Of a stretch of 64,000 bases of DNA, positions 11,456 to 51,178 are shown in pieces (position 1 is the stretch's first letter; each line of letters begins with the position of its first letter). Under the pieces are notes generated by a model. That model saw nothing but the letters and a program-made list of their open reading frames with translations. It was not told the DNA's origin and did not search any database. Origin of the DNA: an uncultured Spirochaetales bacterium (GTDB lineage: Bacteria; Spirochaetota; Spirochaetia; CAYRYS01); the NCBI GenBank assembly GCA_964428555.1, contig CAYRYS010000003.1, forward strand, positions 95 to 64,094. The letters are read 5' to 3'. A program made the translations under genes and the position numbers.

Positions 11456-11469
11456 AAAAAGAATGAAAA

Positions 11470-11848
11470 AGCAGGTCGGGTTATCGCTGCAGCAGATGGT
11501 TGCTGCAGAGGAAAGTCCGGGCTCCCAAAGAGCATAATGCCGGGTAATTCCCGGGGCTTGTATTCGAAAAGAATAGAGGTACAGAAAGTGCCGCAGAAAC
11601 CAGACCGCCTGCCTGGTTAGTCGAAAGATTACCAAGCAAGGTAAGGGTGAAAGGGTGAGGTAAGAGCTCACCTGTCTGTTAGTAATAGCAGATGTATGGT
11701 AAACCTCATTAGGAGCAAAGCCAAGCAGCGGATGCACTGCTCTTTGTGAAACCGCGGGTAGGCTGCAAAAACCGTATGGGAACATACGGTGTAAGATAGA
11801 TGATAACCAAGGTATTACCTTACAGAACCCGGCTTACAGACCTGCTTT
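11470..11848 (+). ncRNA. rnpB: RNase P RNA (rnpB), bacterial type A
   Basis: Conserved blocks GGAAAGTCCGGGCTCC, ACAGAAAGTGCCGCAGAAA, AGGGTGAAAGGGTGAGGTAAGAGCTCACC and the 3' CAGAACCCGGCTTACAGACCTGCTT that pairs with the 5' AAGCAGGTCGGG (P1), by comparison with E. coli M1 RNA. Boundaries are +/-5 nt. Confidence 0.85.
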
Positions 11849-11877
11849 TCCATTCAGTCTTTTATATATAAAATGCT

Positions 11878-12822
11878 ATGAATTACCCGAATTCTAGATT
11901 CCAGTTTAGATCTCGAAAAAAGAAGAAGAGTAGAAAGCTGCTCATTCTGATAGCAGGAAGTATTCTGCTATTTGTAACAGTTATTTCTGTCTTTGTATTT
12001 CGAGACTCCATTCCCTTTATTCAAACAAATGAAGCAGAAGATGTTGATTTATTAGCATTGTGGAACGAGGGTAACTATACTCTTATTATCGAAGAGTGTA
12101 ATACCATTCTAATTGAAGAACCTATGAATGGGACTGCACTTGTTCTTAGCGGTTTTTCTTATTTTTATCACGCCCTTTCTCAAAATTCTTTAGAAGAAAA
12201 AATCCGCTTGCTGGATATATCAATTGCACACCTTAGAAAGTCAGAACTTGTGGCTGAAGCACCCCTCGCTAGGCAGGTAGATTATGTCCTTGGAAAAGCA
12301 TACTATCTAAAGGGTAAGTTTTATGCAGATTTAGCGATACAGTATCTTGAGACAGCACTGGAGTCCGGGTTCATTAATGACGACTTGTACGAGTATCTTG
12401 GACTTTCATATAGCCAAATAGGAGACTATGAAAATAGTATTCACTATTTTCTTTTAGCATTGGAAGAAAACGAGAGTGATCTGCTATTTCATACTCTTGG
12501 CCGCACTTACTATATCATGGAGAATTTCGGTGCTGCAGAGGAATATCTTACACGTGCTGTTGAAATAACTGAAGATCCGGAATTAGAGGAGAAATGTGTT
12601 TCTCTTCTTGCTGAAATCTATATGAATAGTGAAGAATATGAGCGTGCTGAAGAGCAGTATAGAAGACTGCTCGAGATTGACCCTCGTTCAGCTGATGTTC
12701 ATTTTTACTTAGGTGAACTCTACGAGGAGATAGGGGATACGGTCCGTGCCCGATATGAATGGAGAGAAGCTTTAAGAATAAATCCAGATCATTACGGAGC
12801 CCGCTTGCGTTATTATCAATAA
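11878..12822 (+). CDS. TPR-repeat protein with N-terminal basic segment and single TM helix
   Basis: KKKKSRKLLILIAGSILLFVTVISVFVF membrane anchor. TPR-like 34-aa periodicity (YYLKGKFYADLAIQYLETALE and others). Confidence 0.55.
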   Translation: MNYPNSRFQFRSRKKKKSRKLLILIAGSILLFVTVISVFVFRDSIPFIQTNEAEDVDLLALWNEGNYTLIIEECNTILIEEPMNGTALVLSGFSYFYHALSQNSLEEKIRLLDISIAHLRKSELVAEAPLARQVDYVLGKAYYLKGKFYADLAIQYLETALESGFINDDLYEYLGLSYSQIGDYENSIHYFLLALEENESDLLFHTLGRTYYIMENFGAAEEYLTRAVEITEDPELEEKCVSLLAEIYMNSEEYERAEEQYRRLLEIDPRSADVHFYLGELYEEIGDTVRARYEWREALRINPDHYGARLRYYQ

Positions 12823-12897
12823 TGTAATAATAATAGTGTAATATCGGCTTTTAAAAACGGCTTTTAATAGAAAGTTATTACTGGGAGGTAATATTAT

Positions 12898-13938
12898 ATG
12901 GGGTTGGGAAAATTTTTTGATGCCTTTTCTGCGGACATAGGAATAGATCTTGGTACTTGTAATACCCTGGTTTATGTCCGCGGAAAGGGAATTGTAATCT
13001 CGGAACCGTCAGTTGTTGCTGTAGAACGAGGTACAAAAAAAGTAGTTGCTGTCGGAGCTGAAGCAAAAAGAATGCTTTGGAAGACCCCGGGCGATATAAT
13101 TGCAATACGGCCTTTGCGGGATGGTGTTATTGCTGACCTGGAGACCACTGAAAAAATGATTAAGTACTTTATCACGAAAGTACTGCCTCGGAGCTGGTTT
13201 GTTAAACCGAGAATGGTAATCGGTGTACCAAGCTGTATAACAGAGGTTGAGCGGCGTGCTGTTGAAGAGAGCGCGTTTAATGCTCGGGAAGTTAAGGTCA
13301 TTGAAGAATCGCTTGCTGCTGCAATTGGAGCAAATATACCAATCTTTGAACCGGCAGGACATATGGTATGTGATATCGGAGGCGGTACGACTGAGATATC
13401 AGTTATTTCGCTCGGCGGTATGGTAGTAACTAATGCGATCCGCCTAGGGGGCGATGAGTTCGATGAAGCAATAATTAAACATGTACGGACTGTTCATAAC
13501 TTAATTATAGGGGAGCAGACAGCAGAAAATTTGAAAGTGACTATTGGAAATGCATCGCCTGATAAAAAGATTGAGAAAATGGAAATAAAAGGCACAGATG
13601 CTATTACCGGACTTCCCAGAAGACTTGAAATTGATAGTGTTGAGGTCAGAGAGGCCTTGCAGGAACCCATCAATGCGGTTATAGAAGAGATAAAGCGGAC
13701 ATTAGGGCAAACACCGCCGGAGCTTGCAGCAGATATTGTGGAACGCGGCATTGTAATGACTGGTGGAGGATCGTTATTAAAAGGATTTCCAAAACTCATT
13801 GCAAAAGAAACAGGCGTTCCTGTTATATTGGCTGAAAATCCATTGTATTGTGTTGCTCTTGGTGCAGGAATGTATTATGATCATGCAAAAGGTGCGAATA
13901 ACGCCAATAGAAATATATATAACAAGCTAAATGTATAA
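12898..13938 (+). CDS. mreB: Rod shape-determining protein MreB
   Basis: [35 protein letters not shown] actin-fold motifs. GGGAGG RBS. Confidence 0.95.
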
Positions 13939-13948
13939 AACATAGAGA

Positions 13949-14803
13949 ATGTTACAACTACGCGGTTTTTTTCAAAAGCATAGAACAGGCCTGGTCTTTG
14001 CAGGACTGCTCTGTGTTTCATCAATAAGTATGGTATTCTCCACAAACACGGTATCTTTTCGTCCGGATGAGATAGGGCTCAGTATTTTCTCATTTTTCCA
14101 GCAGACTGTATCCGGGGTTACTAACTGGTTTTCAGAAACAATTTATTCTATTCAAGAGCTTGCAGAACTCCAGGAAGACTATGAAGAGCTTCAGGATAGG
14201 GTTTTCGAGATGCAGACCTATGAAACAGAGCTGGAGGAGCTTCGCCTGGAAAATGAGCGCCTGAGTGAGTTGCTGAATTTTTCTGAATCTATTGAGTTCG
14301 ATCACATTGCTGCACAGATTATTGCAAAAGACCCTGAAAATATATTTAACTCAATACAATTGAACCGCGGGAGAGTGCATGGAATTCAGCCTGGCATGCC
14401 TGTTATTGCGTATTATGATGGGTATCAGGGACTTGTTGGCAGAATTAGAGATGTAGGGTTATACACATCAATCATATTGCCGGTGTATGATAGCGGATCT
14501 TATGTTGCTGCACGGCTTCAAGAGACCAGATACGAGGGAATGGTAAATGGAAGCGGTATTTCAGAGGATCAGCTGTTTATGCAGTATGTAAGAAAACAGG
14601 CAATAGATAATATCGAATACGGAGATTTAGTTGTTACTTCAGGAATGAGTTCTGTATTTCCTGAAGGAATATATATCGGACGGGTCCGAGCAATCCAGGC
14701 CAGGGATTACGAAACATCCCTTCATATTCAGGTTGAGCCTGTAATCGATTTCCGGAGGCTTGAAAACGTGTTTATTTTGAGAGTATTAGATAATGAGAGC
14801 TGA
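13949..14803 (+). CDS. mreC: Rod shape-determining protein MreC
   Basis: Lies between mreB and mreD. N-terminal TM, coiled coil, then a beta-rich domain. Overlaps mreD by 11 nt. Confidence 0.8.
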   Translation: MLQLRGFFQKHRTGLVFAGLLCVSSISMVFSTNTVSFRPDEIGLSIFSFFQQTVSGVTNWFSETIYSIQELAELQEDYEELQDRVFEMQTYETELEELRLENERLSELLNFSESIEFDHIAAQIIAKDPENIFNSIQLNRGRVHGIQPGMPVIAYYDGYQGLVGRIRDVGLYTSIILPVYDSGSYVAARLQETRYEGMVNGSGISEDQLFMQYVRKQAIDNIEYGDLVVTSGMSSVFPEGIYIGRVRAIQARDYETSLHIQVEPVIDFRRLENVFILRVLDNES

Positions 14804-21803: not shown

Positions 21804-22085
21804 TTATTTTTTATCACTTACCTTTGTCAGTATCCATAAAAGAAATAATGCTGTCAGGATTGGAGGAAATAAGTTAACCGAATTATTAAAGTTCGCAAGA
21901 TATTCAATTATATCCTGAAATAGATAATCAATGACTCCCCCAAGATATGCACCGATAACACCGACAATAAGAGCACCAAAGAAATTACCAAGCAGAGGCT
22001 TCTTTAGTACATATCGAAAGTATAATGCTGCTGCAAAACCAATTATAAAATAAATAAGTCCAATGTTAAAGTAATATGCTATCAT
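21804..22085 (-). CDS. Small membrane protein (GlsB/YeaQ/YmgE-like, two TM helices)
   Basis: 93 aa, two hydrophobic helices with GxxxG-like glycine spacing (GALIVGVIGAYLGG). Confidence 0.4.
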   Translation of the reverse strand: MIAYYFNIGLIYFIIGFAAALYFRYVLKKPLLGNFFGALIVGVIGAYLGGVIDYLFQDIIEYLANFNNSVNLFPPILTALFLLWILTKVSDKK

Positions 22086-22097
22086 GCTTGTCCCTTC

Positions 22098-22871
22098 CTA
22101 ATACGGTGAATACGGTAATTCTGTATATCCTATATATTTAGCTAAACTATAAATTTCAGTAGATAATTCAAATCTTCCGTATACTGCTACAAAGAATGAG
22201 ATACCAATAATAATATCATCGTAACTCTCTGGAAGAATGTTTTCTATGTCCTCGTCCTCATAGGAAAGATCCTCTGGTAGAAAACCCTCCTGAACGATTT
22301 CTTCTGTATCAGTAGTCTGGATATGACGGACCAATGATATAGAATTCGAAAGATAAGATGCAGTAAAAGCCCCTGTCTCAGGATCAAGATTGACGGTAAT
22401 ATTAAAAGAAGTGTTTCTTTCTGCAGGAAGTATCTGAATAGCCGGTCTTGTATCGTCTATCGGTTGGCCTGGAGCTGTTGCCCGCGCGAGTCTGCGGTAT
22501 TTGAATTGACTGGATGTAAGCTGTTCTACTGTTCGGTTTTCACTTCCAGTGGGAATGAGGCTTGGATCAGTATCCGGATTGTCTATTGTGGTGGGATCAT
22601 AAAAACGATAGTAGATCTCATATCCTAAAAAGTTTTCCGGTATATTATCAGGATTATTTTCAAACACGCACCGTTCATTTACACGCGAGAATTCATCGGA
22701 AACAGCTTGCACTTCTTCTAAATACGGGGTGTACTCAAGTCCGCAGGTTGTGAGAAATAATACTGAAATACAGATTGCAAAGAATAAGGGAAAACCTCCC
22801 CTATTCTTTGTTCTGTTGTGTGTCTTCGGATTTTTCCGGCTCAAGTGGTTCAATACTGTCAATAAGCTCAT
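22098..22871 (-). CDS. Hypothetical lipoprotein
   Basis: Lipobox FLTTC after a hydrophobic stretch. No recognisable catalytic motifs. Overlaps the 3' end of the cyclase gene by 71 nt. Confidence 0.5.
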   Translation of the reverse strand: MSLLTVLNHLSRKNPKTHNRTKNRGGFPLFFAICISVLFLTTCGLEYTPYLEEVQAVSDEFSRVNERCVFENNPDNIPENFLGYEIYYRFYDPTTIDNPDTDPSLIPTGSENRTVEQLTSSQFKYRRLARATAPGQPIDDTRPAIQILPAERNTSFNITVNLDPETGAFTASYLSNSISLVRHIQTTDTEEIVQEGFLPEDLSYEDEDIENILPESYDDIIIGISFFVAVYGRFELSTEIYSLAKYIGYTELPYSPY

Positions 22872-25221
22872 AAATTAATACCGGTTTATTCTTTCCTTTT
22901 ACTCGGATGTTGTCAAGCTCTCTGACAATGAATTTGTCCTTAACAAGCCCATAAGTGTACTCGCTAATAATGATATTTGTTTTGTACTGTTTGTTGGTTC
23001 CTTCAAGGCGAGCCCCAAGGTTTACATTGTCTCCCATGAGTGTGTAGTTCATTCTTCCAAGAGATCCCATGTTTCCAACTGTCATAATTCCGGAATTAAG
23101 ACCAATACCAATATCAATACGCTTTTCAGGCGGCCAGGATTCATTCAGTTCATTGAGCACTTTCATCTGTTTTAAAGCACATTTACATGCAAATAACGCA
23201 TGGTCTTCCTGTGGAAGCGGTGCTCCCCAGAAACACATTATCTCGTCTCCAACATACTTATCAAGAGTACCGCGAAATTCTAGTATAAGGTCTGTCATTG
23301 CAGTTAAGTAAAGGTTTAGATGATTTACTAACTCCTGCGGTGTCAAGCTTTCAGAGAGCGTGGTAAATCCGCGAATATCTGAGAAAAGTACTGTAAGCTC
23401 CTTATCCACTCCCCCAAGTTCCGGAGGATTTTCGAGTATCTGATCAACAACCTGAGGGCTTACATATTTGCCGAACATATCACGAATTCTCCGTTTATCC
23501 CGCTCTTCAGTCATTACCCTAAATACTACAACAGAAAGAAAAGTGAAAAATACTGCCATTGCGGGCGTAGTAAAGTTCAGGATGTATGCTTGGAAATCAA
23601 ACACCAAAGTAATGGTAATAAAAAGCACCAAAATAAGCACGACTGAAAGAATCAATGATATAAGCGTAGAACTCCTGGAAGTCATAAATGCAATGAGCAT
23701 GACAAATCCGAAAAGAATAAGAAAATCGACCCACCAGGGAGCGTAATCAAGAAAACGATCCATAACAATGGTATTGAGCGCATTTGCGTGGATCTCAATA
23801 CCATACATTAAGCCATAGGGTGTCGGTTTTTCATCTTCGGCAATACCTTTGGCAAAGGGACCTACCATTACCAGTGTGTTTCCAAGGAGTTTTGTCCGCG
23901 GCCACTGGCTTGGAGCTGGAGACGGTACACGGGAAGCGTATCCTGAAAATGAACGGACCGGAAAGGTCTGGTATCCGTCAGAAGAAGATGGCATTCCCAT
24001 AAAATTTACAATCATCTGGCCAGATTCGTTAATCGGGATGTTTATTTCTTCCAGCACCCTTGTTTGTGCTGGGGTTATTACATTCCCTTCACTGTCCATT
24101 TCCGCAGGTACCTCTGTTATTTCATAGGGTACCCATTGTTGGGTTTCAATATCAAAATGCTCAGGGCTTGGAATTGTAATTGACTCTCCAAGCACTACAG
24201 TTACATCATCAAGGCTTTTATTAAAGTATTCCAAAGCAAGTGATAAGGTAATAGCAGGTACCAGACGGTCTCTGTATCTCCGTATTACATAATAATAATC
24301 ATCAGGTACTCCGTCTCCATCAGTATCCTCAGTTTTTAATGGTGCGAATTCCTGCATATCCCGTCTTACCTGGGCTAAAACTTCCGGAGTCAGAGGATGC
24401 GGTATGTGGCGCTCAAAACCATCTGAATCAATCCATGCTAGGCGCTCAAAATCTCCATAGTTTACTGCAGTGTTAACAGTTAACTCCTCAAGGCGAAATC
24501 GTTCGACAAGTTCTGAAGATTTTGCAATAAGCGGCTGTCTTCTGTAAACTTTATCTGCATCTTCCACGTAGTTTGCATGGCCGTATCCGTTTGTCGCTTC
24601 AGCATATGGAACTAGGGGCGGCTGAAGCCCGTGAAAGGCACGCATGTTTTCCCAATCGCCGTATACATTTTCTATGTATCCATACTGTTCATAAAGGGTG
24701 TGTTGACGCCGGAACATCTCTTCTTCTGTACCCGGAGGCGGAGGATTATTGCTGAGAACGGTTTCGAGAAAGACTCTGCCGCTATTTTCAATACTTTCAA
24801 CAAGGAGGGCATCGTTGTATGCATTGTCAGCAGGTTCAATGTAGAAAATATCCAGGAAAACTGCCCGTTCCCGCTCTTCCTGGTTCTGGATCCGTGCAAG
24901 CGAGTCTAGAAGGTTTGCCCATCTATACCGAGGGAATGGCCATCTGCCAAACCTGCTTAAACTGTTAAAGTCTATCCCAACGATGAGAATGTCTTCAGAT
25001 ATGTTGGGGTTTCTTTCCTGTATTGTTACACCTTCCTGAAGGCTTCTTGAACGGAAGAGCATTTTCAAATTAAAATGTAAATCCAGGACTTTGAGTTCCA
25101 AATTGGCTGGTATGGTTGTGTAATGCGTAAATAGCGTAAAAAGGACTACAATAAAAAGTCCAATAATTAGTCCAAAATACTTTGTTTCAAATATCTTAGC
25201 TCGTTTTTTTGTTTTTGCCAT
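22801..25221 (-). CDS. CHASE2 sensor domain-containing class III adenylate/guanylate cyclase
   Basis: N-terminal TM, a large extracytoplasmic domain, a triple TM block, then a cyclase domain with FSDIRGFTTLSE, GDEIMCFWGAP, YTLMGDNVNLGARLE. Confidence 0.85.
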   Translation of the reverse strand: MAKTKKRAKIFETKYFGLIIGLFIVVLFTLFTHYTTIPANLELKVLDLHFNLKMLFRSRSLQEGVTIQERNPNISEDILIVGIDFNSLSRFGRWPFPRYRWANLLDSLARIQNQEERERAVFLDIFYIEPADNAYNDALLVESIENSGRVFLETVLSNNPPPPGTEEEMFRRQHTLYEQYGYIENVYGDWENMRAFHGLQPPLVPYAEATNGYGHANYVEDADKVYRRQPLIAKSSELVERFRLEELTVNTAVNYGDFERLAWIDSDGFERHIPHPLTPEVLAQVRRDMQEFAPLKTEDTDGDGVPDDYYYVIRRYRDRLVPAITLSLALEYFNKSLDDVTVVLGESITIPSPEHFDIETQQWVPYEITEVPAEMDSEGNVITPAQTRVLEEINIPINESGQMIVNFMGMPSSSDGYQTFPVRSFSGYASRVPSPAPSQWPRTKLLGNTLVMVGPFAKGIAEDEKPTPYGLMYGIEIHANALNTIVMDRFLDYAPWWVDFLILFGFVMLIAFMTSRSSTLISLILSVVLILVLFITITLVFDFQAYILNFTTPAMAVFFTFLSVVVFRVMTEERDKRRIRDMFGKYVSPQVVDQILENPPELGGVDKELTVLFSDIRGFTTLSESLTPQELVNHLNLYLTAMTDLILEFRGTLDKYVGDEIMCFWGAPLPQEDHALFACKCALKQMKVLNELNESWPPEKRIDIGIGLNSGIMTVGNMGSLGRMNYTLMGDNVNLGARLEGTNKQYKTNIIISEYTYGLVKDKFIVRELDNIRVKGKNKPVLIYELIDSIEPLEPEKSEDTQQNKE

Positions 25222-25265
25222 GCTTTAACCCCCCAGGAAAGCAGTGGAAGCAGGGGGAAAGCCCC

Positions 25266-25970
25266 CTACTCCTGGTCAATATAACCGGACACGGTTAAAT
25301 AAATTATACGGTTTTCGGCAATATTTGTCCAATGACTTTCCGGATATCCGTCAATTAGTCTTGTGTATGCTATCTCAGCCTCTTCCCACTCTTCCTGTGA
25401 TTCATGCAGTCTTCCGACATTCATGAGTGCACGGGTGTTCTGAGCAACTGCTTGAGGAAAATCTGCGAGAAGACTTTCAAAAGCTGCAATTGCATTATCA
25501 GCTTCTTCGAGATTCTCATATGCTGCTGCAATATTAAACTGAGCAATCGGTGCTAAATATGTTTCCGGATATCTGTCAATAAGCTGTGTAAACCCTGTGA
25601 TCGCTTCTTCATAGTTTTCCTGGTTAAAATCCAGATTTGCTTGGATAAACATAGCCTTCTGAGCAGCAAAAGTATTAGGATATGTTTCTAAGATACTTTC
25701 TGTGCTTTCAAAAATCTCCTCTGCAATGGCTGTCTTTTCATCTTCGTCCGTTGTATCGATCCATGTGATAAACTGCTCATTCACAGCTTCAATATGTTCA
25801 GCTGCTTCCTGACTTCTTGACTTCTGCAATTCAGAATAAACGCCGAAAACAATGAAGAATACAACCATAAACACAAAGAGTCCGATAAGTAAAAATCTGT
25901 GTTTATAAATACCTGATGACAATGCTTGGATTAGTTTTTCTTTCGGTGACTGTTCGTGAGTATTCACCAT
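25266..25970 (-). CDS. TPR-repeat membrane-anchored protein (YfgM-like architecture)
   Basis: N-terminal TM FLLIGLFVFMVVFFIVFGVY followed by TPR repeats. AAGGAG RBS. Confidence 0.55.
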   Translation of the reverse strand: MVNTHEQSPKEKLIQALSSGIYKHRFLLIGLFVFMVVFFIVFGVYSELQKSRSQEAAEHIEAVNEQFITWIDTTDEDEKTAIAEEIFESTESILETYPNTFAAQKAMFIQANLDFNQENYEEAITGFTQLIDRYPETYLAPIAQFNIAAAYENLEEADNAIAAFESLLADFPQAVAQNTRALMNVGRLHESQEEWEEAEIAYTRLIDGYPESHWTNIAENRIIYLTVSGYIDQE

Positions 25971-25985
25971 CTTCAGTAATCTCCT

Positions 25986-27494
25986 TTATTTGGTTATTTC
26001 GAGTTCTCGTATCAGTCTGGACAGATATGTCCTCTGGATACCGAGGTCTTTTGCAGTCTCGGTTTGGTTCCATCCATGCTGATGTAGACTTTTTCGTATG
26101 AAATTCCGTTTGAATATATTAACCGCTTCTTTTAGCCCTGCGCCTTCGTATGCTGTGTCACCGCTGCTGCTTGATGATGAGAGCACTAAATCCGATGAAT
26201 GGATCAAACTGTCAGAAGCAATGACAACAGCCCGTTCTATCGCGTTTTCAAGCTCTCTAGCGTTTCCAGGCCAGGAGTAGGAAATAAGTGTTTCCATAGC
26301 CTCGTCAGTGAAGCCCTGGATTTGTTTTTTAGACTCCCGCGAATATGATTTCAGAAAGTAATCAGCAAGCGCCGGTATGTCGTCAGGACGCTCTCTAAGT
26401 GCCGGGATGTGAAGAGGAAGGACATTGAGCCTGTAATATAGGTCGCTTCTGAATTGCCCGTCCTCCACAGCCTTTTCTAAGTCTTTATTTGTTGCTGCAA
26501 TTATTCTAACATCCACTACCGTAGATTCACTGGCACCTACTCTTTCAAAGGTCTTGTTCTGTATTGCGCGCAAGAGTTTTGCTTGAAGAGAAAGTGGTAT
26601 TTCTGCGATCTCATCTAAGAATAGCGTTCCGCCGTCTGCAAGCTCAAAGCGTCCGCGCCTGTCGGATGAGGCGTCAGTAAAGGCACCTTTTACGTGTCCA
26701 AAAAGCTCGCTTTCGAGTAAGGCGTCAGGCAGTGCTGCACAGTTTACGCGGATAAACGGCTGGCCTGCACGTCTGCTTTTTAGATGGATCTGCTCAGCAA
26801 AGAGTTCTTTTCCGACTCCACTTTCGCCGAGTATCAGAACAGATGTATCTGTTTTTGCTACTTTTTCAACGATTTGAAGTTTTTCATTAATCACATTGCT
26901 TTGTGAGATAAACGGGTGAAAACCCTTTTGCTTTTGTACCTGATCCTGAAGCTGATATACTTCCTCTCTCATCTTCTGGTAAGTTTGTGCGTTTTCAATT
27001 GCAATGGCAGCTTGTGTAGCAAAAATCTCAGACCATTGGAGGTCTTCCTGATTGAATGTCTTGCCGGTTTTTTTGTTTATTAGCTCAATAACCCCGATAC
27101 AGCGGTCTTTCATGCGCATCGGTACCGCGAGGATTGAATTTGTAGGAAACCCTATTGTTTTGCTGATATCAGAAAAGAAGCGGGGTTCGGATTCTACATC
27201 GTTCACTAATAGGGAGGTATTATTCTGTGCAACCCACCCTGCAATGCCTTCTCCCGGATTGAGGGAAAAGTGTTTAACATCTGATCCCTTGGATCCAAGT
27301 GCAATTTCAAAATAGAGCTTATTATTTTCAGGGTTTAATAGAAGAAGTGACGATGCCTCCCCTTCTGTCAGCCGCATCGCAGACTCAAGTATCCGTGTTA
27401 GCAGCACTTTTACGTCTGTATACTGAGAGTTAATCAGAGCATTAATCTCTATAAGAGTCTCAAATTTATTTCTGTCAATGTCAGATTGAAACAT
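25986..27494 (-). CDS. Sigma-54-dependent transcriptional activator with N-terminal GAF domain and C-terminal Fis-type HTH
   Basis: GAF region, then AAA+ GESGVGKE, ESELFGH (GAFTGA-type), an arginine finger region, and a C-terminal HTH ETAKDLGIQRTYLSRLIRE. Confidence 0.9.
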   Translation of the reverse strand: MFQSDIDRNKFETLIEINALINSQYTDVKVLLTRILESAMRLTEGEASSLLLLNPENNKLYFEIALGSKGSDVKHFSLNPGEGIAGWVAQNNTSLLVNDVESEPRFFSDISKTIGFPTNSILAVPMRMKDRCIGVIELINKKTGKTFNQEDLQWSEIFATQAAIAIENAQTYQKMREEVYQLQDQVQKQKGFHPFISQSNVINEKLQIVEKVAKTDTSVLILGESGVGKELFAEQIHLKSRRAGQPFIRVNCAALPDALLESELFGHVKGAFTDASSDRRGRFELADGGTLFLDEIAEIPLSLQAKLLRAIQNKTFERVGASESTVVDVRIIAATNKDLEKAVEDGQFRSDLYYRLNVLPLHIPALRERPDDIPALADYFLKSYSRESKKQIQGFTDEAMETLISYSWPGNARELENAIERAVVIASDSLIHSSDLVLSSSSSSGDTAYEGAGLKEAVNIFKRNFIRKSLHQHGWNQTETAKDLGIQRTYLSRLIRELEITK

Positions 27495-27544: not shown

Positions 27545-27579
27545 GCAGAAAAATACCCTTTACAATACTTGTAAAGGGG
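27545..27579 (-). terminator. Rho-independent terminator downstream of rpsA
   Basis: Perfect 9-bp stem CCCTTTACA/TGTAAAGGG with a 5-nt loop. Followed on the minus strand by UAUUUUUCU. Confidence 0.6.
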
Positions 27580-27602: not shown

Positions 27603-29309
27603 TTACAGATTGTCCTTATCGTCTTTTTTTAGCAGATCACCCAAAGTTGCTTTTGGTTCTTCATCATCATCATGAATATATTTTGAAAGTTCTTCTCTCT
27701 GGATCTTGTTCTGATATTCCCGAATAGAAAGGGAAAGTTTTTGACGGTTTGGATTTATATCCGATACCACAGCCTTTACCTTTGAACCTGGTTCATACTT
27801 TGCAAACGCTTCTTCAATGGTCGCAATAGCCGGGTCGCTTAACTGGTTTTTGTTGATTAAACCTTCGATGCCCCCAGGGACTTTTACAAACATTCCGAAA
27901 TCAGTAATTGTAGTAACTTCACCTTCTATTATGCTTCCTTTTGGATAAGATCGTGCAAAACCTTTCCATGGATCATCTGAAAGTTGTTTTACCCCAAGCT
28001 GAATACGGTTGTTTTCTTTATTTATTGAGATAACTACAACTTCTTGTTCTTCACCTTCTGTTAATACAGAATTTGGACTTTTTATACGCTGGGTCCAGGA
28101 TAAGTCATCAACGTGCAGGAAGCCGTCTATGCCTTCCTCTAGTTCGAGAAATGCACCTGCGTTTGTAATCTTTTTCACAACACATTTCATCCGCTTGCCT
28201 ACAGGATACTTTTCTTCGATGTTTTCCCAAGGATTCGGATAAACCTGTTTCAAACCGAGAGATACTCTACCCTGCTGTATATCGTATCCGAGAATTTTTG
28301 TTTCAACTTCATCTCCAATAGCCAGTATTTCCTTCGGATGGGAGATGCGCTTAACCCATGAAAGTTCAGAAATATGAGCAAGTCCTTCTATGCCTTCTTC
28401 GAGTTCAATAAATGCGCCGAAATCGGTAAGTTTTGTAACTTTTCCTTTTACAACATCCCCTTCATTGTACCGGTCTTCAAAGTGAAGCCATGGGTCTTCT
28501 GTAAAATGCTTCAGCGATAGGTTGATCCTCTGTTCTTCAGGATCCAGCCGGATTACCTTTAATTGGATTTTCTGACCTTTTTTAACGAAATCTTTAGGCT
28601 TGGTCACGTGGCCCCAGCTCATATCGTTGATATGCAGTAATCCGTCAAAACCGCCGAGATCAATGAATGCACCAAAAGAAGTAAAGCTTTTAACTGTACC
28701 TTCTACAGTATCGCCAATAGTAACATTGTTGAAGAAATATTCTCTGTTTTTTTCGATTTCTTCTTCCAGCAGGTTTCTTCTGGATAGAATGATGTTTACT
28801 TTACCTTCATTGTAAAGGCGCTCAAGGTAGAACCTTGATTTCATACCTACATACTCTTCTGGTTTTTCAATCCTGCTGATGTCCATTTTTGACATTGGGG
28901 TAAACGCTGATACACCATTGCCAAGGTCTACTTCGAAACCGCCTTTAATATTTTTTGCAACGGTTCCTTCAACAGGCTCTCTGTTCTGGAATGCGTTTCT
29001 GAGGTCTTTCCAAAAGACTTTAGCATCAGCTTTACGCTTGGAAAGGATAACCTCACCTCGCTTGTTTTCTTTATTGATTAAAACAACATCAACTGTTTCA
29101 CCGATTTCAGGTTTTTTATCAAATTCGGAGACGGGGATCTTTCCTTCAGACTTATAGCCGATGTCAATGAAAACCTGCTCATCATTGACTTGGACTACAG
29201 TTCCTTCAATAAGTTGCCCCTCTTCTAATTGCTCTAACTGTTTGAGGTATTCTTCTTGTAGTTCAATTTGGTTAATGCCGTTTGAAATGGGCTCCTTCTC
29301 ACTCATCAC
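27603..29309 (-). CDS. rpsA: 30S ribosomal protein S1
   Basis: Six tandem S1 domains (repeated GxV.G.V....FGAF..L..GL.H.S.), 568 aa. Confidence 0.95.
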   Translation of the reverse strand: MMSEKEPISNGINQIELQEEYLKQLEQLEEGQLIEGTVVQVNDEQVFIDIGYKSEGKIPVSEFDKKPEIGETVDVVLINKENKRGEVILSKRKADAKVFWKDLRNAFQNREPVEGTVAKNIKGGFEVDLGNGVSAFTPMSKMDISRIEKPEEYVGMKSRFYLERLYNEGKVNIILSRRNLLEEEIEKNREYFFNNVTIGDTVEGTVKSFTSFGAFIDLGGFDGLLHINDMSWGHVTKPKDFVKKGQKIQLKVIRLDPEEQRINLSLKHFTEDPWLHFEDRYNEGDVVKGKVTKLTDFGAFIELEEGIEGLAHISELSWVKRISHPKEILAIGDEVETKILGYDIQQGRVSLGLKQVYPNPWENIEEKYPVGKRMKCVVKKITNAGAFLELEEGIDGFLHVDDLSWTQRIKSPNSVLTEGEEQEVVVISINKENNRIQLGVKQLSDDPWKGFARSYPKGSIIEGEVTTITDFGMFVKVPGGIEGLINKNQLSDPAIATIEEAFAKYEPGSKVKAVVSDINPNRQKLSLSIREYQNKIQREELSKYIHDDDEEPKATLGDLLKKDDKDNL

Positions 29310-29325
29310 TATTATAATACTCCTG

Positions 29326-29970
29326 CTAATTTGTTTCGATATTACGGATTTTCCTTACTACTTTCTCACAAACTTCATCTATGGTCAAGTCCGAAGTGTC
29401 TAAATATATTGCATCTTTGGCGATTTTAAGATTTCCGACTGCCTTATTTCTGTCTATTTTATCTCTTTCAGCAATGCTTTTACGGATACTGTCCATTGAC
29501 ATTTCACTGGTGCCTTGCTTGAACCGCCTTCTTGCACGCTCTTCAATAGAGGCGTCAAGAAATATCTTATATTCTGCATCCGGGAATACCACTGTTGCCA
29601 TGTCGCGTCCTTCTGCAACAATGTCCCGTTTTTGGGCAATTTTCTGAATTTCGTTGTTAATATGGGTACGGATCTCCGGTATGGATGATACAATTGCAAC
29701 TTTTGCATCGATTTTATCTGTATGTAAGTGTTCTTCAACATCCTCGCCGTTAATGTGGAGTCTGCTGTCAACAATAGTAAATTCGCAGTTTTTTGCAGTC
29801 TTAATCAATTCGTTCTGGCCTCTATCAGACTTATTTTGTTCAATTATTTTATATGTAACACCTCGGTAAAAATTACCCGAATTGAGATAAAAGTAATCTA
29901 AACTTTCAGCAATTCGTTTTGCGATTGTGCTTTTCCCGACACCTGCCGGTCCGTCAATTGCAACTACCAT
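29326..29970 (-). CDS. cmk: Cytidylate kinase
   Basis: P-loop AIDGPAGVGKST. Sits beside rpsA, the classical cmk-rpsA linkage. Confidence 0.9.
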   Translation of the reverse strand: MVVAIDGPAGVGKSTIAKRIAESLDYFYLNSGNFYRGVTYKIIEQNKSDRGQNELIKTAKNCEFTIVDSRLHINGEDVEEHLHTDKIDAKVAIVSSIPEIRTHINNEIQKIAQKRDIVAEGRDMATVVFPDAEYKIFLDASIEERARRRFKQGTSEMSMDSIRKSIAERDKIDRNKAVGNLKIAKDAIYLDTSDLTIDEVCEKVVRKIRNIETN

Positions 29971-32673: not shown

Positions 32674-33745
32674 TTGCTTTGGCCTTCTCTTTGCCGGATG
32701 AACTCTCCTTAGTTTCTTCTGTGGGAAAGAGGATCACCCGAAGTTTCTTTTCAAGTTCTTTGGCAATATCCGGGTTTGTTTCAATAAATTGTTTTGCATT
32801 ATCTCTGCCTTGGCCAATCCGTTCTTCTCCGTAAGAATACCAGCTGCCGCTTTTCTGAATCAAGTTGTGCTGAACCGATGCATCTAAGAGGCTTGCAGAC
32901 CAGGAAATACCTTTTCCAAAAACAATTTCCAGTTCTACTTTTCTGAATGGAGGTGCGACCTTGTTTTTTACAATTTTTACTCTGACCCTGTTTCCTGTTG
33001 CATCATCAGTGCCTTTTGATATTGTTTCAATTCTCCGTACTTCAAGCCGAACTGAGGAATAAAACTTTAAGGCTTTTCCTCCGGTGGTTGTTTCGGGATT
33101 ACCGAACATGACGCCGATCTTCATACGGATCTGATTGATAAAAACAAGACAGCACTTGGATTTAGAAATCGTACCTGTAAGCTTCCGCAGGGCTTGACTC
33201 ATAAGTCTTGCCTGAAGACCCATATGGGAGTCTCCCATGTCTCCTTCGATTTCAGCACGGGGGGTGAGTGCAGCTACAGAGTCTACAACCACAATATCCA
33301 CAGCTCCTGAGCGCACAAGGCTTTCAGTTATTTCCAATGCCTGTTCTCCAGTGTCCGGCTGTGACACCCATAACTCATCTGTATTAACTCCGAGGTGTTT
33401 GGCATATGCTGGATCAAGTGCGTGTTCTGCATCTACAAACGCAGCTATGCCTCCATTCTTTTGCGCCTCTGCGATTGCATGGAGAGCAAGAGTGGTCTTT
33501 CCAGAAGACTCAGGACCGTAGATTTCAATGATACGGCCTTTAGGATATCCGCCGATACCGAGTGCTGAGTCCAATAGGATAGAACCTGAGGGAATTGTTG
33601 CAATATCCATGTTCTTAACACCGGTACCGAGTTTCATTATTGAGCCTTTACCGTACTGTTTCTCTATTTGCGACTTTGCAGCCTCCAAGGCTTTTAGTTT
33701 TTCTTCTCTGGCATTGTTTGTCTGAGGTGTCTCTTTTTTTGCCAT
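32654..33745 (-). CDS. recA: Recombinase RecA
   Basis: Walker [43 protein letters not shown]. Confidence 0.97.
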
Positions 33746-33822
33746 TACGGCCTCCTATTACGTATTCATTCTGCGTATTCAGAAAGCATAAATTAAGGAA
33801 AATACTATCCGATACTATATAT

Positions 33823-34479
33823 ATGTACAGGTATTTTTTTCTCTTGCTTTTCCTTTTTCACGTTTTTTTTGTAAATAGTGAAGATTTACAGAATTTTGTG
33901 CAATCCTCTTCTGAATATGAAAATACCATAATAGTCCAGTTAATAAAAGAGTCTAATTTCCATGACCAGTGTATTATTTTTGAGAATCTTCCTTTTCGTG
34001 AAGATTGGAATTTTCGTGAAATATTGCGAGAGCTTTCAAGCAGAATGTACACTATTCCGGAACCTAGGAAAGAGCACTTATTAATGCTTTTTTATGTATC
34101 AATGAATCAACAGATAGCTTCAGGTCGCGGAAATATTGCTACTGAGTCACAGTTTTTCCTTAATGATGTAGCCACAGGATTTCCTGGATTTCATGACCAC
34201 TATCTCAGGGCTGCGGTCATGGATTTCTGCAGATATAATTACCAGAGTACACAGCTGCTGGATATTGCGGGAGAGGCAGGAGAATACCTTGCTGAGGTTT
34301 ATACTTCAGGTATTCACGATCTTGATATTCCTGGTTTAGAATTAGAGGTTTTATCCTTTTTACGGTTGGCTGATGAGATTGACAGTGTAAGCTACTATCC
34401 GTATTTCACTATAATTTTGGAAAATACTTCATCAGAGCGGATTGCAGATGAAATACATGAAATAGTTACTGATAATTAA
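33823..34479 (+). CDS. Hypothetical secreted protein (218 aa)
   Basis: The ATG at 33823 gives signal-peptide-like MYRYFFLLLFLFHVFFVNS. The ORF-track start at 33640 would run antisense over the recA start. No motifs recognised. Confidence 0.45.
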   Translation: MYRYFFLLLFLFHVFFVNSEDLQNFVQSSSEYENTIIVQLIKESNFHDQCIIFENLPFREDWNFREILRELSSRMYTIPEPRKEHLLMLFYVSMNQQIASGRGNIATESQFFLNDVATGFPGFHDHYLRAAVMDFCRYNYQSTQLLDIAGEAGEYLAEVYTSGIHDLDIPGLELEVLSFLRLADEIDSVSYYPYFTIILENTSSERIADEIHEIVTDN

Positions 34480-36029: not shown

Positions 36030-37088
36030 TTAATTATTGCCGTTCTCCACTTTGTTTTCAAGTTCCTCAATGAGGTTTTCGAGTACTTCTATCTCAGATT
36101 CTGTAATTTCTCTATCAAGACTGAGGAGGCGGTCTATCTGATTTATAATGTCTCTAACGCGTATAAGATCTGTACGGATAGTGTTTTCCGGTGTTGCATC
36201 CTCTGCGCTTGATTCGTTAGATCTTTCATGTAGAGCATGTAGCTCTTCATTGGACGTTTCAGCTGTGCTCGCAGAGAAGCCACTGGTATTGAAATTTCCG
36301 ATAGCAAGGGTAATTTCTCTAGAAGAGCCTGATGCAACTGTGGTTGGATTAAAGTACACAGCTGCTGCTGAATCATTGATAGAATATGGGAGTCTGGAAA
36401 AATTACGAGTAGTATTTACATCATAGGACCATGGTGTGTCATCCAGTCTTTTCCAGTTTGCGAAAACAACTCTATCTGGGCGTGTAATTCCTTCTCCTGA
36501 AAGAGATTGCATGAAACCAATATCGCTGTTTTCCTCTTTGGAAACCCATAATCCTGTGGATGAGTTGGCATTGATTGAATATTCTCTGTTTATGGTCTGC
36601 ATTTCTGAACCCACAAAGAAGTGGTTGTTCTCATCCTCCCCAAGATAGGTGTCAAATAAATACCGTGCTCCGATCGAAAGTGGTTGTTCAGAAACATTCT
36701 CAATAGTAATGGTGATTAGTACCCCATTGGCCAAAGAAGAATTTGCCGAGCGGATTAGCTGGAAACTTTGCGTAACTGTTGCTTCAGTGGACTGCCAGGA
36801 AATTTGGGCACCATTAACCGTTTCCTCAACGGACTGGCGAAAGCTTCCTGACTCTCCCATTCTGTAGACACGGTTTTCAATCAGTACGCTAAGTACTGTA
36901 GTACGAGGATCTTGAGTCAAAAGCAAAGGGGTATACTGATTTCTGCTTACATTTTCAAGATAATAGATGCTGAAACGACCGGTGTTTTCATGGATAATGA
37001 GCTTGATTCTGCCTTCACTGATCTCCAGTCCTGATAATTGCAGCGAGAACAACAAAGCTAATATGCATAATAAAAAGACTCGTTTCAT
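36030..37088 (-). CDS. Hypothetical secreted protein with C-terminal coiled coil
   Basis: Signal peptide MKRVFLLCILALLFSLQLSG, a beta-rich N/S/T-rich body, and a C-terminal heptad region (EIEVLENLIEELENKVEN). Confidence 0.5.
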   Translation of the reverse strand: MKRVFLLCILALLFSLQLSGLEISEGRIKLIIHENTGRFSIYYLENVSRNQYTPLLLTQDPRTTVLSVLIENRVYRMGESGSFRQSVEETVNGAQISWQSTEATVTQSFQLIRSANSSLANGVLITITIENVSEQPLSIGARYLFDTYLGEDENNHFFVGSEMQTINREYSINANSSTGLWVSKEENSDIGFMQSLSGEGITRPDRVVFANWKRLDDTPWSYDVNTTRNFSRLPYSINDSAAAVYFNPTTVASGSSREITLAIGNFNTSGFSASTAETSNEELHALHERSNESSAEDATPENTIRTDLIRVRDIINQIDRLLSLDREITESEIEVLENLIEELENKVENGNN

Positions 37089-39224: not shown

Positions 39225-40178
39225 ATGCAGGATATACAACCGAACTCAGAGAATGAGAATATACAGAAAAAGCTTCTGTCTGCTTACGAAAAGATGAAAG
39301 AAGCAAAATATACAGAAGCAATCAATCTGCTTGATAATGCCTTATCAATCGATTTCGAGCACTGCGAGACTCTGTCTGCCCTTAAGTGTGCGAACTTCTG
39401 GAAGGACCGCCAGGAACAAGCTGAGTCAATCCGTGATTTATTTGATAAGGGGGAATACCTAATTGCACAATGGGACAAGTTTGAAAGCTTTATTGAACAG
39501 ATAGGCGGCGCTTCTGACCAATGTGTTATTGCAATTAAGCATAGTGTGTTCGGACAGGCGCTCCAGGCGTATGAACACTTAATTCAGGAAAGCGGGGGTA
39601 TTGATCCTGAGATATACATGCGTGCAGGAAGGTGTTACAAGGCTATTGGTAACTATGAAAAAGCACTTGAATGCTATGAAAATGCAATGCAGCAGAAACG
39701 GGATGATGCGGGAATACTTGCTGAGCTAGCGGATGCGTATGCACTGGTTAATGAATTGCGTTTTTCCAAAGCTTTTTTTCGAGAAGCCTTTTATCTCAAC
39801 CCACAGGGGATTGATTTGAGTAAACTTGAATCAGGAATGATCGGAAGGCTGATCGAAAAGGTAAAAGAAAGAGGATTTACAGGACAGGAAATTGCTGAGT
39901 GGATACCAGTTTATGGTGTTCTTTTCGGTGTTTTCAATATAAAGCGTGAACTCAGGCCAATTGAGCTCGGAAAACTTAAACAATCTATATATGCACTTGA
40001 AACTGAAGTGCGTGAAGGTCGTGAAAATGCCGGGTTTCTTAAACCCAGGCTTATTAACAGATATTTTTGGCTCATTGATCATTATATGGCCAAAAAAGAA
40101 GATAGAAAAAAGATAGAAGAAGTTTTACTCAAACTACAAGAAATTGACCCTGCAGTACATAGGGACTATACGAATTAA
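39225..40178 (+). CDS. Hypothetical TPR-like helical protein (317 aa)
   Basis: TPR-like repeats (YMRAGRCYKAIGNYEKALECYENAMQ, LAELADAYALVNELRFSKAFFREAFYLNP). No catalytic motifs. Confidence 0.45.
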   Translation: MQDIQPNSENENIQKKLLSAYEKMKEAKYTEAINLLDNALSIDFEHCETLSALKCANFWKDRQEQAESIRDLFDKGEYLIAQWDKFESFIEQIGGASDQCVIAIKHSVFGQALQAYEHLIQESGGIDPEIYMRAGRCYKAIGNYEKALECYENAMQQKRDDAGILAELADAYALVNELRFSKAFFREAFYLNPQGIDLSKLESGMIGRLIEKVKERGFTGQEIAEWIPVYGVLFGVFNIKRELRPIELGKLKQSIYALETEVREGRENAGFLKPRLINRYFWLIDHYMAKKEDRKKIEEVLLKLQEIDPAVHRDYTN

Positions 40179-40203
40179 TTTTTTGCTACCAGGAGATGAG
40201 GGA

Positions 40204-49892: not shown

Positions 49893-51178
49893 TGGCGTAC
49901 CTTTATTATCATCAACAAAAGTCCTATAAATAAAATTATAAAATTCGGAAGCCACATTGATAAAAATGGTGAAAAATCCATGCGGAGACCAAGTGTTTGC
50001 CCTGCTATGAGCATACCCCAATAAAATACTGAAATAAACAAGCCTATTCCAAAGCCAACAGAACGGCCGCTTCGCTTGGTAAACAATCCTGCAGGAAGCG
50101 CAAGAAAAAGAAATGTGAGACAGGCAGCAGGAACCGAGAATTTTTTATAAAACTCCAGGTTATATATACTTAAGCTTCTGTCATCTATCTCCTCACTTGC
50201 AGAAGAATAATACCGTCTGAAGGTATTTTCAATATCATTGTTAAGGGTCGGTTGCTGTGGGTCCTCAGCACGCATAGTATAGTGTTCATACTGCTGTATA
50301 AGTTCAAATTCAAGATTCCTTAACTCTATCTCATGAGAGGTGATCTGTTCATTCAGCGCAGCCTGCTTTTCCTGTATTGCGCGGTAGACATCCACAGAGC
50401 TCATTTCCCGGGGACCTGGATTCTGAAGAGAAAAGGATACATTTGACAAAAGAATATTATATATCATATTTGAAGATTCAAAGTATGAGAAATCATTTTC
50501 GGTTTCCGGATCAATGCTTTGGGAAAGAATGTCTTCCAAATTAAGGGAAATAACCCCGCTTTGTTCCTCGTTTTCTTCGAGAAAAGCCCTATCTGCAAGA
50601 ATGACCCGGTTCTCCTCTTCCCCGGTTTCATCAATAATGATCATGTTATTGATTTGATTCCCCTCAACTCTGCCGGTGATCAAAGTGCTATCTTCGTACC
50701 GCTTTACTGAATAGGATTCAAGTTCAAGCTCAGGCGCACTGTAAAGCAGCTCCCTGTACAAACGGGAGAAATTAATACTCCCAAGGGGCAGAAGATAGTC
50801 ATTAACAAAAAAGGATCCCACAGACAGCAGTGTTCCAGCGAATAAAATTGGAATAAACATTTTACGCAAAGGAATTCCGGATGCTCGGAACGCAAGTACT
50901 TCGTTATCAGAGGAAAATCGTCCCATTGCCATAAGTCCGCCAACCAGGGATCCGAATGGAGCTGAAAGTGCGATAATTGAAGGGAGTGAGTATACAATTA
51001 GAAGAAAGACATCGAAAAGAGCAACCTGTTTTTCCAGTATATCCTCAGCAAGAAGCAGTATTTGATTAATAAAGAATATAAAAAAGAAAAAGAGAAATGC
51101 TACAAAAAAGGAGAGGATAAATTCTTTCCATATGTACCGTGTTGTAATACTAAAAAAACGCATGCAAAAGCCTTTCAT
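49889..51178 (-). CDS. LptF/LptG-family permease (YjgP/YjgQ), paralogue of the downstream gene
   Basis: Same architecture as the downstream paralogue, with a SLVGGLMAMGRFSSDNEVLAFRASGI-like conserved segment. Confidence 0.7.

Follow-up and report, generated by a model that had tools for sequence, protein, structure and literature searches.

Does a membrane sensor adenylate cyclase talk to the sigma-54 activator that is encoded next but one to it in a spirochaete genome? The question is raised by four minus-strand genes at positions 22098 to 27494 of the 64,000-nucleotide (nt) stretch analyzed here—the window, part of contig CAYRYS010000003.1 (assembly GCA_964428555.1) of an uncultured Spirochaetales bacterium. 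The block encodes a sigma-54 enhancer-binding protein (EBP) with an N-terminal GAF domain, a membrane tetratricopeptide repeat (TPR) protein, an adenylate cyclase with a periplasmic CHASE2 sensor, and a lipoprotein. The original prediction for this DNA had proposed that cyclase and EBP form a self-contained cyclic-nucleotide circuit feeding sigma-54 transcription. The reading reached here is related but narrower: a membrane sensor adenylate cyclase would feed a sigma-54 activator gated by cyclic AMP (cAMP), a proposal whose standing we judge to be evenly balanced. The genes and domains in question are the following.

25986..27494, minus strand: EBP of 502 amino acids, with GAF domain, AAA+ sigma-54 interaction domain, AAA lid and putative Fis-type helix-turn-helix (HTH)
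26991..27419, minus strand: GAF domain of the EBP, residues ~26-168, of the cyclic-nucleotide-binding type as judged by PDB sequence and profile searches and Foldseek
26172..26909, minus strand: AAA+ sigma-54 interaction domain and lid of the EBP, residues ~196-441, assigned by Pfam; its GAFTDA loop is residues 270-275
25266..25970, minus strand: YfgM-family TPR protein of 234 amino acids, with PF09976 TPR_21, TPR_6 and YfiO matches
22801..25221, minus strand: membrane adenylate cyclase of 806 amino acids, with Pfam CHASE2 and Guanylate_cyc domains
22098..22844, minus strand: lipoprotein of 248 amino acids counted from TTG 22844, with lipobox; the longest open reading frame (ORF) is 22098-22871, 257 amino acids

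All four ORFs lie where they had been placed, with gaps of 15 nt and 44 nt and an overlap of 71 nt. Pfam bears out the assignments of the GAF/sigma-54 activator, the membrane TPR protein and the CHASE2 cyclase, and a signal peptide with lipobox does the same for the lipoprotein.

The GAF domain is the first place to look for an answer. It scores 60 bits in Pfam and, on the evidence of its sequence relatives, belongs to the subfamily of GAF domains that bind cyclic mononucleotides (cNMPs), so that binding itself may be expected. When residues 1-193 are compared with PDB sequences by phmmer, the GAF domain of Lcd1 from Leptospira interrogans comes out on top (5w10, E 2e-21), followed by PDE2A GAF-B, PDE5 GAF-A, the GAF domain of the HD-GYP enzyme 4mcw, CyaB2 and PDE10A GAF-B; the GAF domain of the EBP Nlh1 reaches only 4e-6. 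A PDB search with the family profile again puts Lcd1 first (E 8e-29)—in an entry described as 'Lcd1 GAF domain in complex with cAMP ligand'—and then PDE5, PDE2A, PDE10A, CyaB2 and PDE6, with Nlh1 at 3e-7. Foldseek on the AlphaFold2 (AF2) model of the domain, which has a predicted local distance difference test (pLDDT) score of 78.6, is led by 4mcw, 5w10, 2zmf, 1mc0, PDE5A and 1ykd, and the EBP-type GAF domains 4g3v (Nlh2) and 3k2n follow at ranks 31 and 47 only. The domain is hence far closer to cNMP-binding GAF domains than to the solved GAF domains of EBPs.

Its conserved residues point in the same direction. The NKFDE motif is conserved in most characterized cNMP-binding GAF domains and sets these apart from other GAF domains, although its residues make no contact with the ligand (PMC4411481, PMC11977230). 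Every one of the 49 orthologues scored keeps four of its positions, namely N140, K/R141, F147 and D151, and S49, I84-A85 and E137 are conserved among the orthologues as well. The fifth position is L152 rather than Glu, and the cAMP-binding Lcd1 also has Leu there. The prediction had staked its case on cNMP-binding residues in this domain; what is found is a conserved NKFD together with cAMP-bound Lcd1, PDE2A/5/10 and CyaB2 as the closest solved relatives.

Lcd1 (GAF-GGDEF, PDB 5W10) is the most instructive of these relatives, being the closest solved one and from the same phylum. Both domains share a Ser on beta1, an I-A-x-G strand, GEGIAG, an F-x-T strand and N-[KR]...F-x3-D-L, and structural alignment by Foldseek gives an identity of ~29%. 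In Leptospira, Lcd1 acts as a diguanylate cyclase that cAMP activates through its GAF domain, the ligand there switching on the attached output domain, and the GAF-HD-GYP protein Tlr0485 is likewise cAMP-responsive (PMC8846402). The outputs differ: a GGDEF enzyme in Lcd1, a sigma-54 AAA+ domain in the EBP. The Anabaena cyclases CyaB1/CyaB2 and the mammalian PDE2/5/10 also carry cNMP-binding GAF domains with NKFDE, from which a C-terminal helix carries the signal (PMC4411481). These are tandem GAF domains with enzymatic outputs, whereas the EBP has a single GAF domain and a transcriptional ATPase. In its AF2 model, a long helix (residues 149-190) joins the GAF to the AAA+ domain.

The rest of the EBP resembles a sigma-54 activator. 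Pfam assigns Sigma54_activat (PF00158, 241.8 bits) and AAA_lid_14 (89 bits), and HTH_8 scores 21.4 bits, just below the 22-bit cutoff, with PF02954 listed for many orthologues. Across 17 orthologues, Walker A (GESGVGKE), Walker B (D294-E295) and R355 do not vary. With its borderline HTH included, the GAF-AAA+-HTH architecture is that of NifA, NorR, FhlA and Aquifex Nlh1/Nlh2, and NifA is the best full-length match in PDB and NCBIfam. Nevertheless, an identity as NifA was rejected, TIGR01817 giving 418.7 bits against a cutoff of 528.85, and so were NorR and FhlA, as all NCBIfam equivalog cutoffs are missed. Since the NifA cutoff is missed, the label 'Nif-specific regulatory protein' that homologues carry is an over-annotation.

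The second component, the cyclase, would have to supply the ligand. Its CHASE2 domain (PF05226) scores 131.6 bits, against a cutoff of 26.3, over residues 27-510, and Guanylate_cyc scores 87 bits. Hydrophobic segments lie at residues 9-38 and 493-572; since hydropathy gives one N-terminal and three post-CHASE2 segments, CHASE2 is placed on the outer side of the membrane and the cyclase domain in the cytoplasm. The layout is thus a first transmembrane segment, a periplasmic CHASE2 domain (~39-492), three transmembrane segments and a cytoplasmic class IIIb domain (~576-790). The CHASE2 profile has 257 positions and its match extends over 484 residues, which corresponds to ~230 residues of insertions in the periplasmic domain. 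Among solved catalytic domains, those of Pseudomonas aeruginosa CyaB (3r5g) and of 6fht are closest (both at ~E 1e-39). In class III cyclases, the two Asp of D615/D659 bind metal, the Lys of K655 binds the substrate, the Thr of Thr727 replaces the Asp that is otherwise the second substrate residue and is the IIIb signature, and Asn734/Arg738 act on the transition state; the Lys/Thr pair marks an adenylate cyclase. All of these residues—D615, K655, D659, T727, N734 and R738—and in addition K775 are invariant in 41 out of 41 sequences, that is, the window and 40 orthologues. Over the same 41 sequences, the catalytic domain has a mean identity of 79% versus 50% for the CHASE2 region. The plain reading of such a catalytic set is an adenylate, not a guanylate, cyclase that should be active.

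CHASE2 cyclases that act on transcription have a precedent. In Sinorhizobium meliloti, the CHASE2 class III cyclases CyaD1/CyaD2/CyaK and the factor Clr convert an external cue via cAMP into the action of a dedicated transcription factor (PMC13001267). The signal is plant uL2, which is sensed via the outer-membrane protein NsrA (PMC13001267); the statement of the prediction that the CHASE2 sensor has no known ligand needs correcting to that extent. Perception in S. meliloti needs NsrA, a beta-barrel, as accessory envelope protein, whereas a YfgM-like TPR protein and a lipoprotein are found here (PMC13001267). The receptors differ, too: a CRP-family factor working with the housekeeping polymerase there, a GAF-EBP working with sigma-54 here.

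Are the two components kept together? To collect relatives, a profile built on nothing but the GAF domain was run against a single genome of each species; it gave 80 loci, on which local tblastn was run. EBP orthologues of equal length and 65-72% identity are abundant in Spirochaetales and Treponemataceae assemblies. In three loci that were looked up, the gene order is recA-(folK)-scpAB-rluB-cmk-rpsA-EBP-TPR-CHASE2 cyclase, followed by hypothetical proteins of ~240-280 and ~93 amino acids, and the run is conserved in dozens of Spirochaetota species. Practically every spirochaete locus with enough sequence on both sides of the EBP has the stretch cmk-rpsA-EBP-TPR (tblastn). Directly after EBP-TPR, the cyclase follows in 38 of the 49 species-level loci with sufficient flank, and the deep branch L064, whose rpsA product is only 49% identical to that of the window, keeps the cyclase at this site. 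Co-conservation, by which the prediction had wanted to be judged, is thus the rule among the informative species. Farther downstream, the flank differs among loci—mazG, radical SAM, gcpE and others—which makes the block more stable than its surroundings.

Put together, these observations suggest the following pathway. The periplasmic CHASE2 domain would sense an envelope or extracellular cue, and the cytoplasmic class IIIb domain with its intact catalytic set would make cAMP. This cAMP would bind the N-terminal GAF domain of the EBP, a plausible ligand for its subfamily. The ligand might then relieve a repression exerted by the GAF domain via the long helical linker, as in other GAF-regulated EBPs; in NorR, the GAF domain is reported to repress the AAA+ domain until the signal comes (PMC2941729). 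The AAA+ domain, once freed, would oligomerize and remodel sigma-54 RNA polymerase at promoters elsewhere in the genome.

What weighs against this pathway concerns the ligand, the neighborhood and the promoter. The identity of the ligand cannot be read from the sequence, because the base-contacting positions differ from those of PDE2A: F438, D439 and T488, which we take to be the residues contacting the base there, are replaced by A65, L66 and I114 in the EBP of the window. On the ribose-phosphate side, the presumed PDE2A contacts S424, I458-A459, T492 and E512 correspond to S49, I84-A85, T118 and E137. This mapping was made on a phmmer alignment to PDE2A GAF-B; the CyaB2 contacts given in PMC4411481 were used beside it. 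A conserved ribose-phosphate side next to a different base side fits a cNMP binder with another base preference and does not identify the ligand. In addition, 4mcw, the top Foldseek match, is not known to carry a ligand and is the one relative among the top ranks that is not known as a cNMP binder. GAF domains of this type are also very common, forming 3,391 representative clusters at E<=1e-30 among 1.84 billion representatives; the search that gave this number is dominated by giant multi-GAF proteins and is uninformative on architectures beyond the size of the family.

These points feed a rival explanation, in which the GAF domain, like those of NifA, NorR and FhlA, responds to a different small molecule or to no ligand at all, and the four genes are unrelated neighbors within a conserved housekeeping region. 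The ligands known for EBPs of the NifA, NorR and FhlA type are 2-oxoglutarate, NO-iron and formate rather than cNMPs. Ligands of GAF domains are not reliably predictable from sequence, the clade is huge and includes multi-GAF proteins, the base-side positions are unlike PDE2A, the best Foldseek match has no known ligand, and the region as a whole is broadly syntenic. As for NKFDE, its residues make no ligand contact (PMC11977230) and the fifth one is Leu instead of Glu. Yet nearly all of the best solved relatives by sequence are established cNMP binders, with E-values ~20 orders of magnitude better than those of EBP-type GAF domains, and both the F-x3-D-L form of the motif and the I-A-x-G strand recur in the cAMP-binding Lcd1. 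Outside the phylum, the closest relatives moreover sit on cNMP or cyclic di-GMP (c-di-GMP) enzymes, so that we regard this explanation as unlikely, with some weight left to it. The nearest of these non-Spirochaetota relatives, at 40-46% identity, are fused to HD-GYP domains, to PAS-histidine kinases and—in Nitrospinota, with the architecture of CyaB1/2—to a GAF-GAF-class III cyclase; a Nitrospirae contig with a full GAF-EBP is also among the relatives. The Nitrospinota contig, L071, encodes its GAF-GAF-class III cyclase at 3201-4919 on the plus strand, with a GAF region that includes a stretch matching the spirochaete EBP GAF domain, and a CHASE2 cyclase at 12175-13959 on the minus strand, 8 kb away.

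On the side of the neighborhood, the cyclase is missing from 11 loci, 10 of them in one termite-gut Treponema clade. The remaining one (L046) branches apart from these in the EBP tree, which implies at least two losses of the cyclase, and the EBP then retains NKFD, S49, I84-A85 and E137. Since the EBP persists after such losses, it does not depend on the neighboring cyclase. Adjacency by itself is weak evidence, too, because the whole region is syntenic, rpsA-EBP is as tight as EBP-TPR, and TPR-cyclase is the widest spacing: over the loci, the median gap is 18 nt between rpsA and the EBP gene (59 loci), 11 nt between the EBP and TPR genes and 58 nt between the TPR and cyclase genes. Where the cyclase is absent, the gene order is EBP-TPR-lipoprotein; the conserved core hence consists of EBP, YfgM-like protein and lipoprotein, and the cyclase is an insertion between the TPR and lipoprotein genes.

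The cyclase might accordingly be incidental. The EBP would still be gated by a cyclic nucleotide, but it would read the general pool of cAMP (or cGMP) from other cyclases, and the gene order would be synteny inherited at the end of the cmk-rpsA cluster. The cyclase-less lineages with their intact GAF residues and the gap sizes speak for this possibility, as does the abundance of class III cyclases in bacteria, S. meliloti having 28 (PMC13001267). We consider it quite unlikely all the same. The cyclase holds the same position in 38 species over a deep divergence while the downstream flank changes, and both its catalytic domain (79% mean identity) and the EBP (~60-70%) are unusually conserved; the EBP is 60-70% identical among species whose S1 proteins share 58-66%. 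Furthermore, a relaxation at position 118 of the GAF domain is tied to cyclase loss: Ser or Thr is found in 36 of 38 cyclase-bearing sequences versus 7 of 11 cyclase-less ones, the site relaxing to S/A/L in the cyclase-less clade. This may be taken as a modest hint of coupling between EBP and cyclase, though it stems from essentially one clade. A general relaxation of GAF evolution after cyclase loss is not seen, as the GAF and AAA+ identities are like those of the equally divergent cyclase-bearing loci L053, L054, L058 and L062; only position 118 and position 5 of the GAFTxA loop stand out in the cyclase-less sequences.

For the pathway from CHASE2 cyclase to EBP, this means that the pairing stands in 38 of 49 species, while the TPR-cyclase gap is the loosest of the block and EBP-TPR-lipoprotein persists without the cyclase. 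The cyclase would be one of the inputs that the EBP receives, and not an indispensable one. The core of the circuit proposed originally, a cNMP signal feeding sigma-54, survives the comparison across species and the scrutiny of the GAF domain. Its description as self-contained does not: the cyclase was lost at least twice, the EBP lies equally close to rpsA, and the window and 85 related loci show no phosphodiesterase, rpoN or -24/-12 promoter within or close to the block.

The promoter is the third point of concern. No rpoN gene is present in the 64-kb window, and no -24/-12 promoter stands out, be it in the window or, at a conserved position, among the 85 related loci. With up to two mismatches, the -24/-12 consensus has 33 matches in the window versus 42 expected by chance, and a weighted scan anchored on GG/GC over the window and the related loci gave no positionally conserved -24/-12 site. 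One recurring candidate could be placed in L054, where it lies inside scpA, ~4.3 kb upstream of the EBP. The prediction had itself remarked that a target promoter is not obvious in the window, and this holds in numbers. Because no site stands out, the targets of the EBP are expected elsewhere in the genome.

Could the EBP then act without sigma-54—together with sigma-70, or as a repressor like TyrR and possibly VfmH? Its GAFTGA loop reads GAFTDA in the window and in 33 of 38 cyclase-bearing orthologues, and GAFTNA, GAFTSA, GAFTCA or GAFTGA elsewhere; the cyclase-less clade mostly has GAFTNA or GAFTSA. Position 5 of the loop thus varies within the family between D, N, S, C and G, no -24/-12 site is near, and a pull-down with VfmH, which has GAFTDA, showed no sigma-54 interaction (PMC10714721). 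Nonetheless, the loop F and T, Walker A/B and the arginines are conserved. GAFTDA and GAYTDA are listed among the variants that keep sigma-54 activation, and DVU2106 of Desulfovibrio vulgaris, with GAFTDA, has an assigned regulon (PMC4641369); sigma-54 regulons are also reported in Spirochaetia (PMC12316311). A sigma-54-independent EBP is therefore very improbable. Across L001-L068, loop position 5 tracks the presence of the cyclase, with Asp in 36 of 38 cyclase-bearing and Asn/Ser in 9 of 11 cyclase-less loci, a correlation that may simply be phylogeny.

What the remaining members of the block contribute can be narrowed down to some degree. The TPR protein matches PF09976 TPR_21 with 43.9 bits (cutoff 25.5) over residues 28-212, in addition to TPR_6/TPR_16 and YfiO. 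It has a short cytoplasmic N-tail, one transmembrane segment (~26-46, within a hydrophobic segment 20-50) and a periplasmic TPR domain, with a conserved juxtamembrane motif 'F-[LI]-x-[RK]-N-R'. By these matches, it appears as a YfgM-family envelope protein and not as an evident signaling part; Escherichia coli YfgM has the same layout and PF09976 domain, a likeness at the family level only.

The fourth ORF encodes a predicted lipoprotein. Its N-region is basic, a hydrophobic core follows, and the lipobox is FLTTC, where the sequence reads ...KNRGGFPLFFAICISVLFLTTC followed by G. Cys-Gly is invariant in 16 aligned homologues and was the criterion for collecting 41 relatives. The motifs 'CG[LI]E-Y-YL-P' and 'YYR[IF]Y' follow the signal peptide, and the ~250-residue protein of the cyclase-less loci has the same 'SCG[IL]E-Y-YL-P' start and 'YYR[IF]Y' motif; the homologues follow the cyclase or, where this is absent, the TPR gene. 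A start at TTG 22844, which gives 248 amino acids and a 44-nt overlap with the cyclase gene, appears more likely than one at 22871. In GCA_046542135.1, a metagenome-assembled genome from Spirochaetia, a 248-residue lipoprotein of 100% identity is annotated by NCBI from the equivalent of TTG 22844, and the neighboring gene order and product lengths equal those of the window. The lipoprotein has no Pfam or NCBIfam match, a word-based search found only 2 homologues, and the single-sequence AF2 model is unusable (pLDDT 35.7).

The YfgM-like protein and the lipoprotein might either be accessory to sensing or be unrelated passengers. By analogy with NsrA in Sinorhizobium, they may assist CHASE2 sensing; since both persist without the cyclase, they probably have another or an additional role.

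Further features close to the block complete the picture.

21804..22085, minus strand: membrane protein of 93 amino acids with ~3 hydrophobic segments, co-conserved downstream of the lipoprotein
27556..27578, minus strand: terminator-like hairpin with a 10-bp stem and then a T-run, from a pattern scan and the sequence, within the 108-nt rpsA-EBP spacer
27603-29309, minus strand: rpsA, invariant upstream neighbor of the EBP, from Pfam annotation
29326-29970, minus strand: cmk, likewise an invariant upstream neighbor by Pfam annotation

The co-directional run in the window thus comprises cmk, rpsA, EBP, YfgM-like TPR protein, CHASE2 cyclase, lipoprotein and the 93-residue membrane protein. The latter is a fifth co-conserved gene, 12 nt past the lipoprotein, with mazG another 6 nt on. 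It has tblastn matches at the same relative position in ~24 cyclase-bearing loci and gene calls in L001, L003, L005 and L086, and it shows a weak YeaQ/YmgE-like match only (E 0.002). Upstream of the EBP, the minus-strand run continues through rpsA, cmk, rluB, scpB, scpA, folK and recA; as it stretches that far, co-directionality alone means little. The surroundings are housekeeping genes: dnaG-rpoD, mreBCD-pbp2-rodA, recA, nusA-infB-rbfA-truB-pnp, lptFG, tgt and murJ. Rfam and tRNA scans found nothing inside or near the block.

The 108-nt rpsA-EBP spacer of the window with its hairpin is atypical among relatives. At a median of 18 nt in 59 related loci, this spacer is too short to hold a terminator, and the block as a transcription unit of its own was rejected as a general feature despite the hairpin in the window. 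In ~22 of 55 related loci, cmk and rpsA form one fused ORF (a product of 794 amino acids in L003, 5596-7980); they are separate genes in the window. Beyond recA, the window has a recA-dtd spacer (33746-34475) of ~730 nt versus ~100-165 nt in L001, L003 and L005, and a plus-strand ORF without Pfam match (33640-34479, 279 amino acids) overlaps the 5' end of recA. A minus-strand ORF of 352 amino acids (36030-37088), whose place next to TPR proteins and upstream of dtd is conserved in L001, L003 and L005, has no Pfam match either, and the same is true for a minus-strand ORF of 516 amino acids (51150-52700).

Elsewhere on the plus strand of the window, a full-length class A RNase P RNA (11468-11852, 270 bits) lies between a zinc-ribbon and a TPR protein gene. 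A protein of 1343 amino acids (1824-5855) has three FlgD Ig-like domains, CHU_C, Big_13 and a C-terminal OmpA domain; most likely it is a large surface or periplasmic protein anchored to peptidoglycan. A protein of 915 amino acids (40144-42891) ends in ~155 residues that make up a complete GreA with N- and C-terminal domains, after ~760 residues without family match.

What would the pathway from CHASE2 cyclase to EBP mean for spirochaetes? The known inputs of sigma-54 activators are phosphorylation, 2-oxoglutarate, nitric oxide, formate, aromatic compounds and c-di-GMP (FleQ, VpsR). The literature searched yielded no activator gated by a cyclic mononucleotide: the parts are each of a known kind—GAF-EBPs, cAMP-binding GAF domains and CHASE2 class III cyclases—and the link of cAMP to an EBP was not previously reported. 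Reviewed spirochaete EBPs are the response regulator Rrp2 of Borrelia, the two-GAF, FhlA-like EbpA and the REC-type EbpB of Leptospira, and sigma-54 control is worked out in that review only for Rrp2 and EbpA (PMC12655853). The EBP described here is probably a central regulator in Spirochaetota, since it is highly conserved and occurs in many free-living and host-associated spirochaetes. With somewhat less than even confidence, we propose that it might be the founding example of a cAMP-gated EBP, through which a cyclic mononucleotide would act directly on sigma-54 transcription, and a core regulator across much of Spirochaetota—equal to ribosomal protein S1 in conservation and mostly encoded within ~20 nt of the rpsA stop—that is fed in most lineages by a dedicated, envelope-sensing CHASE2 cyclase. 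If true, this would add a new second-messenger input into enhancer-dependent transcription, and it would give a concrete output to one among the many orphan class III cyclases and to the poorly understood CHASE2 sensor.

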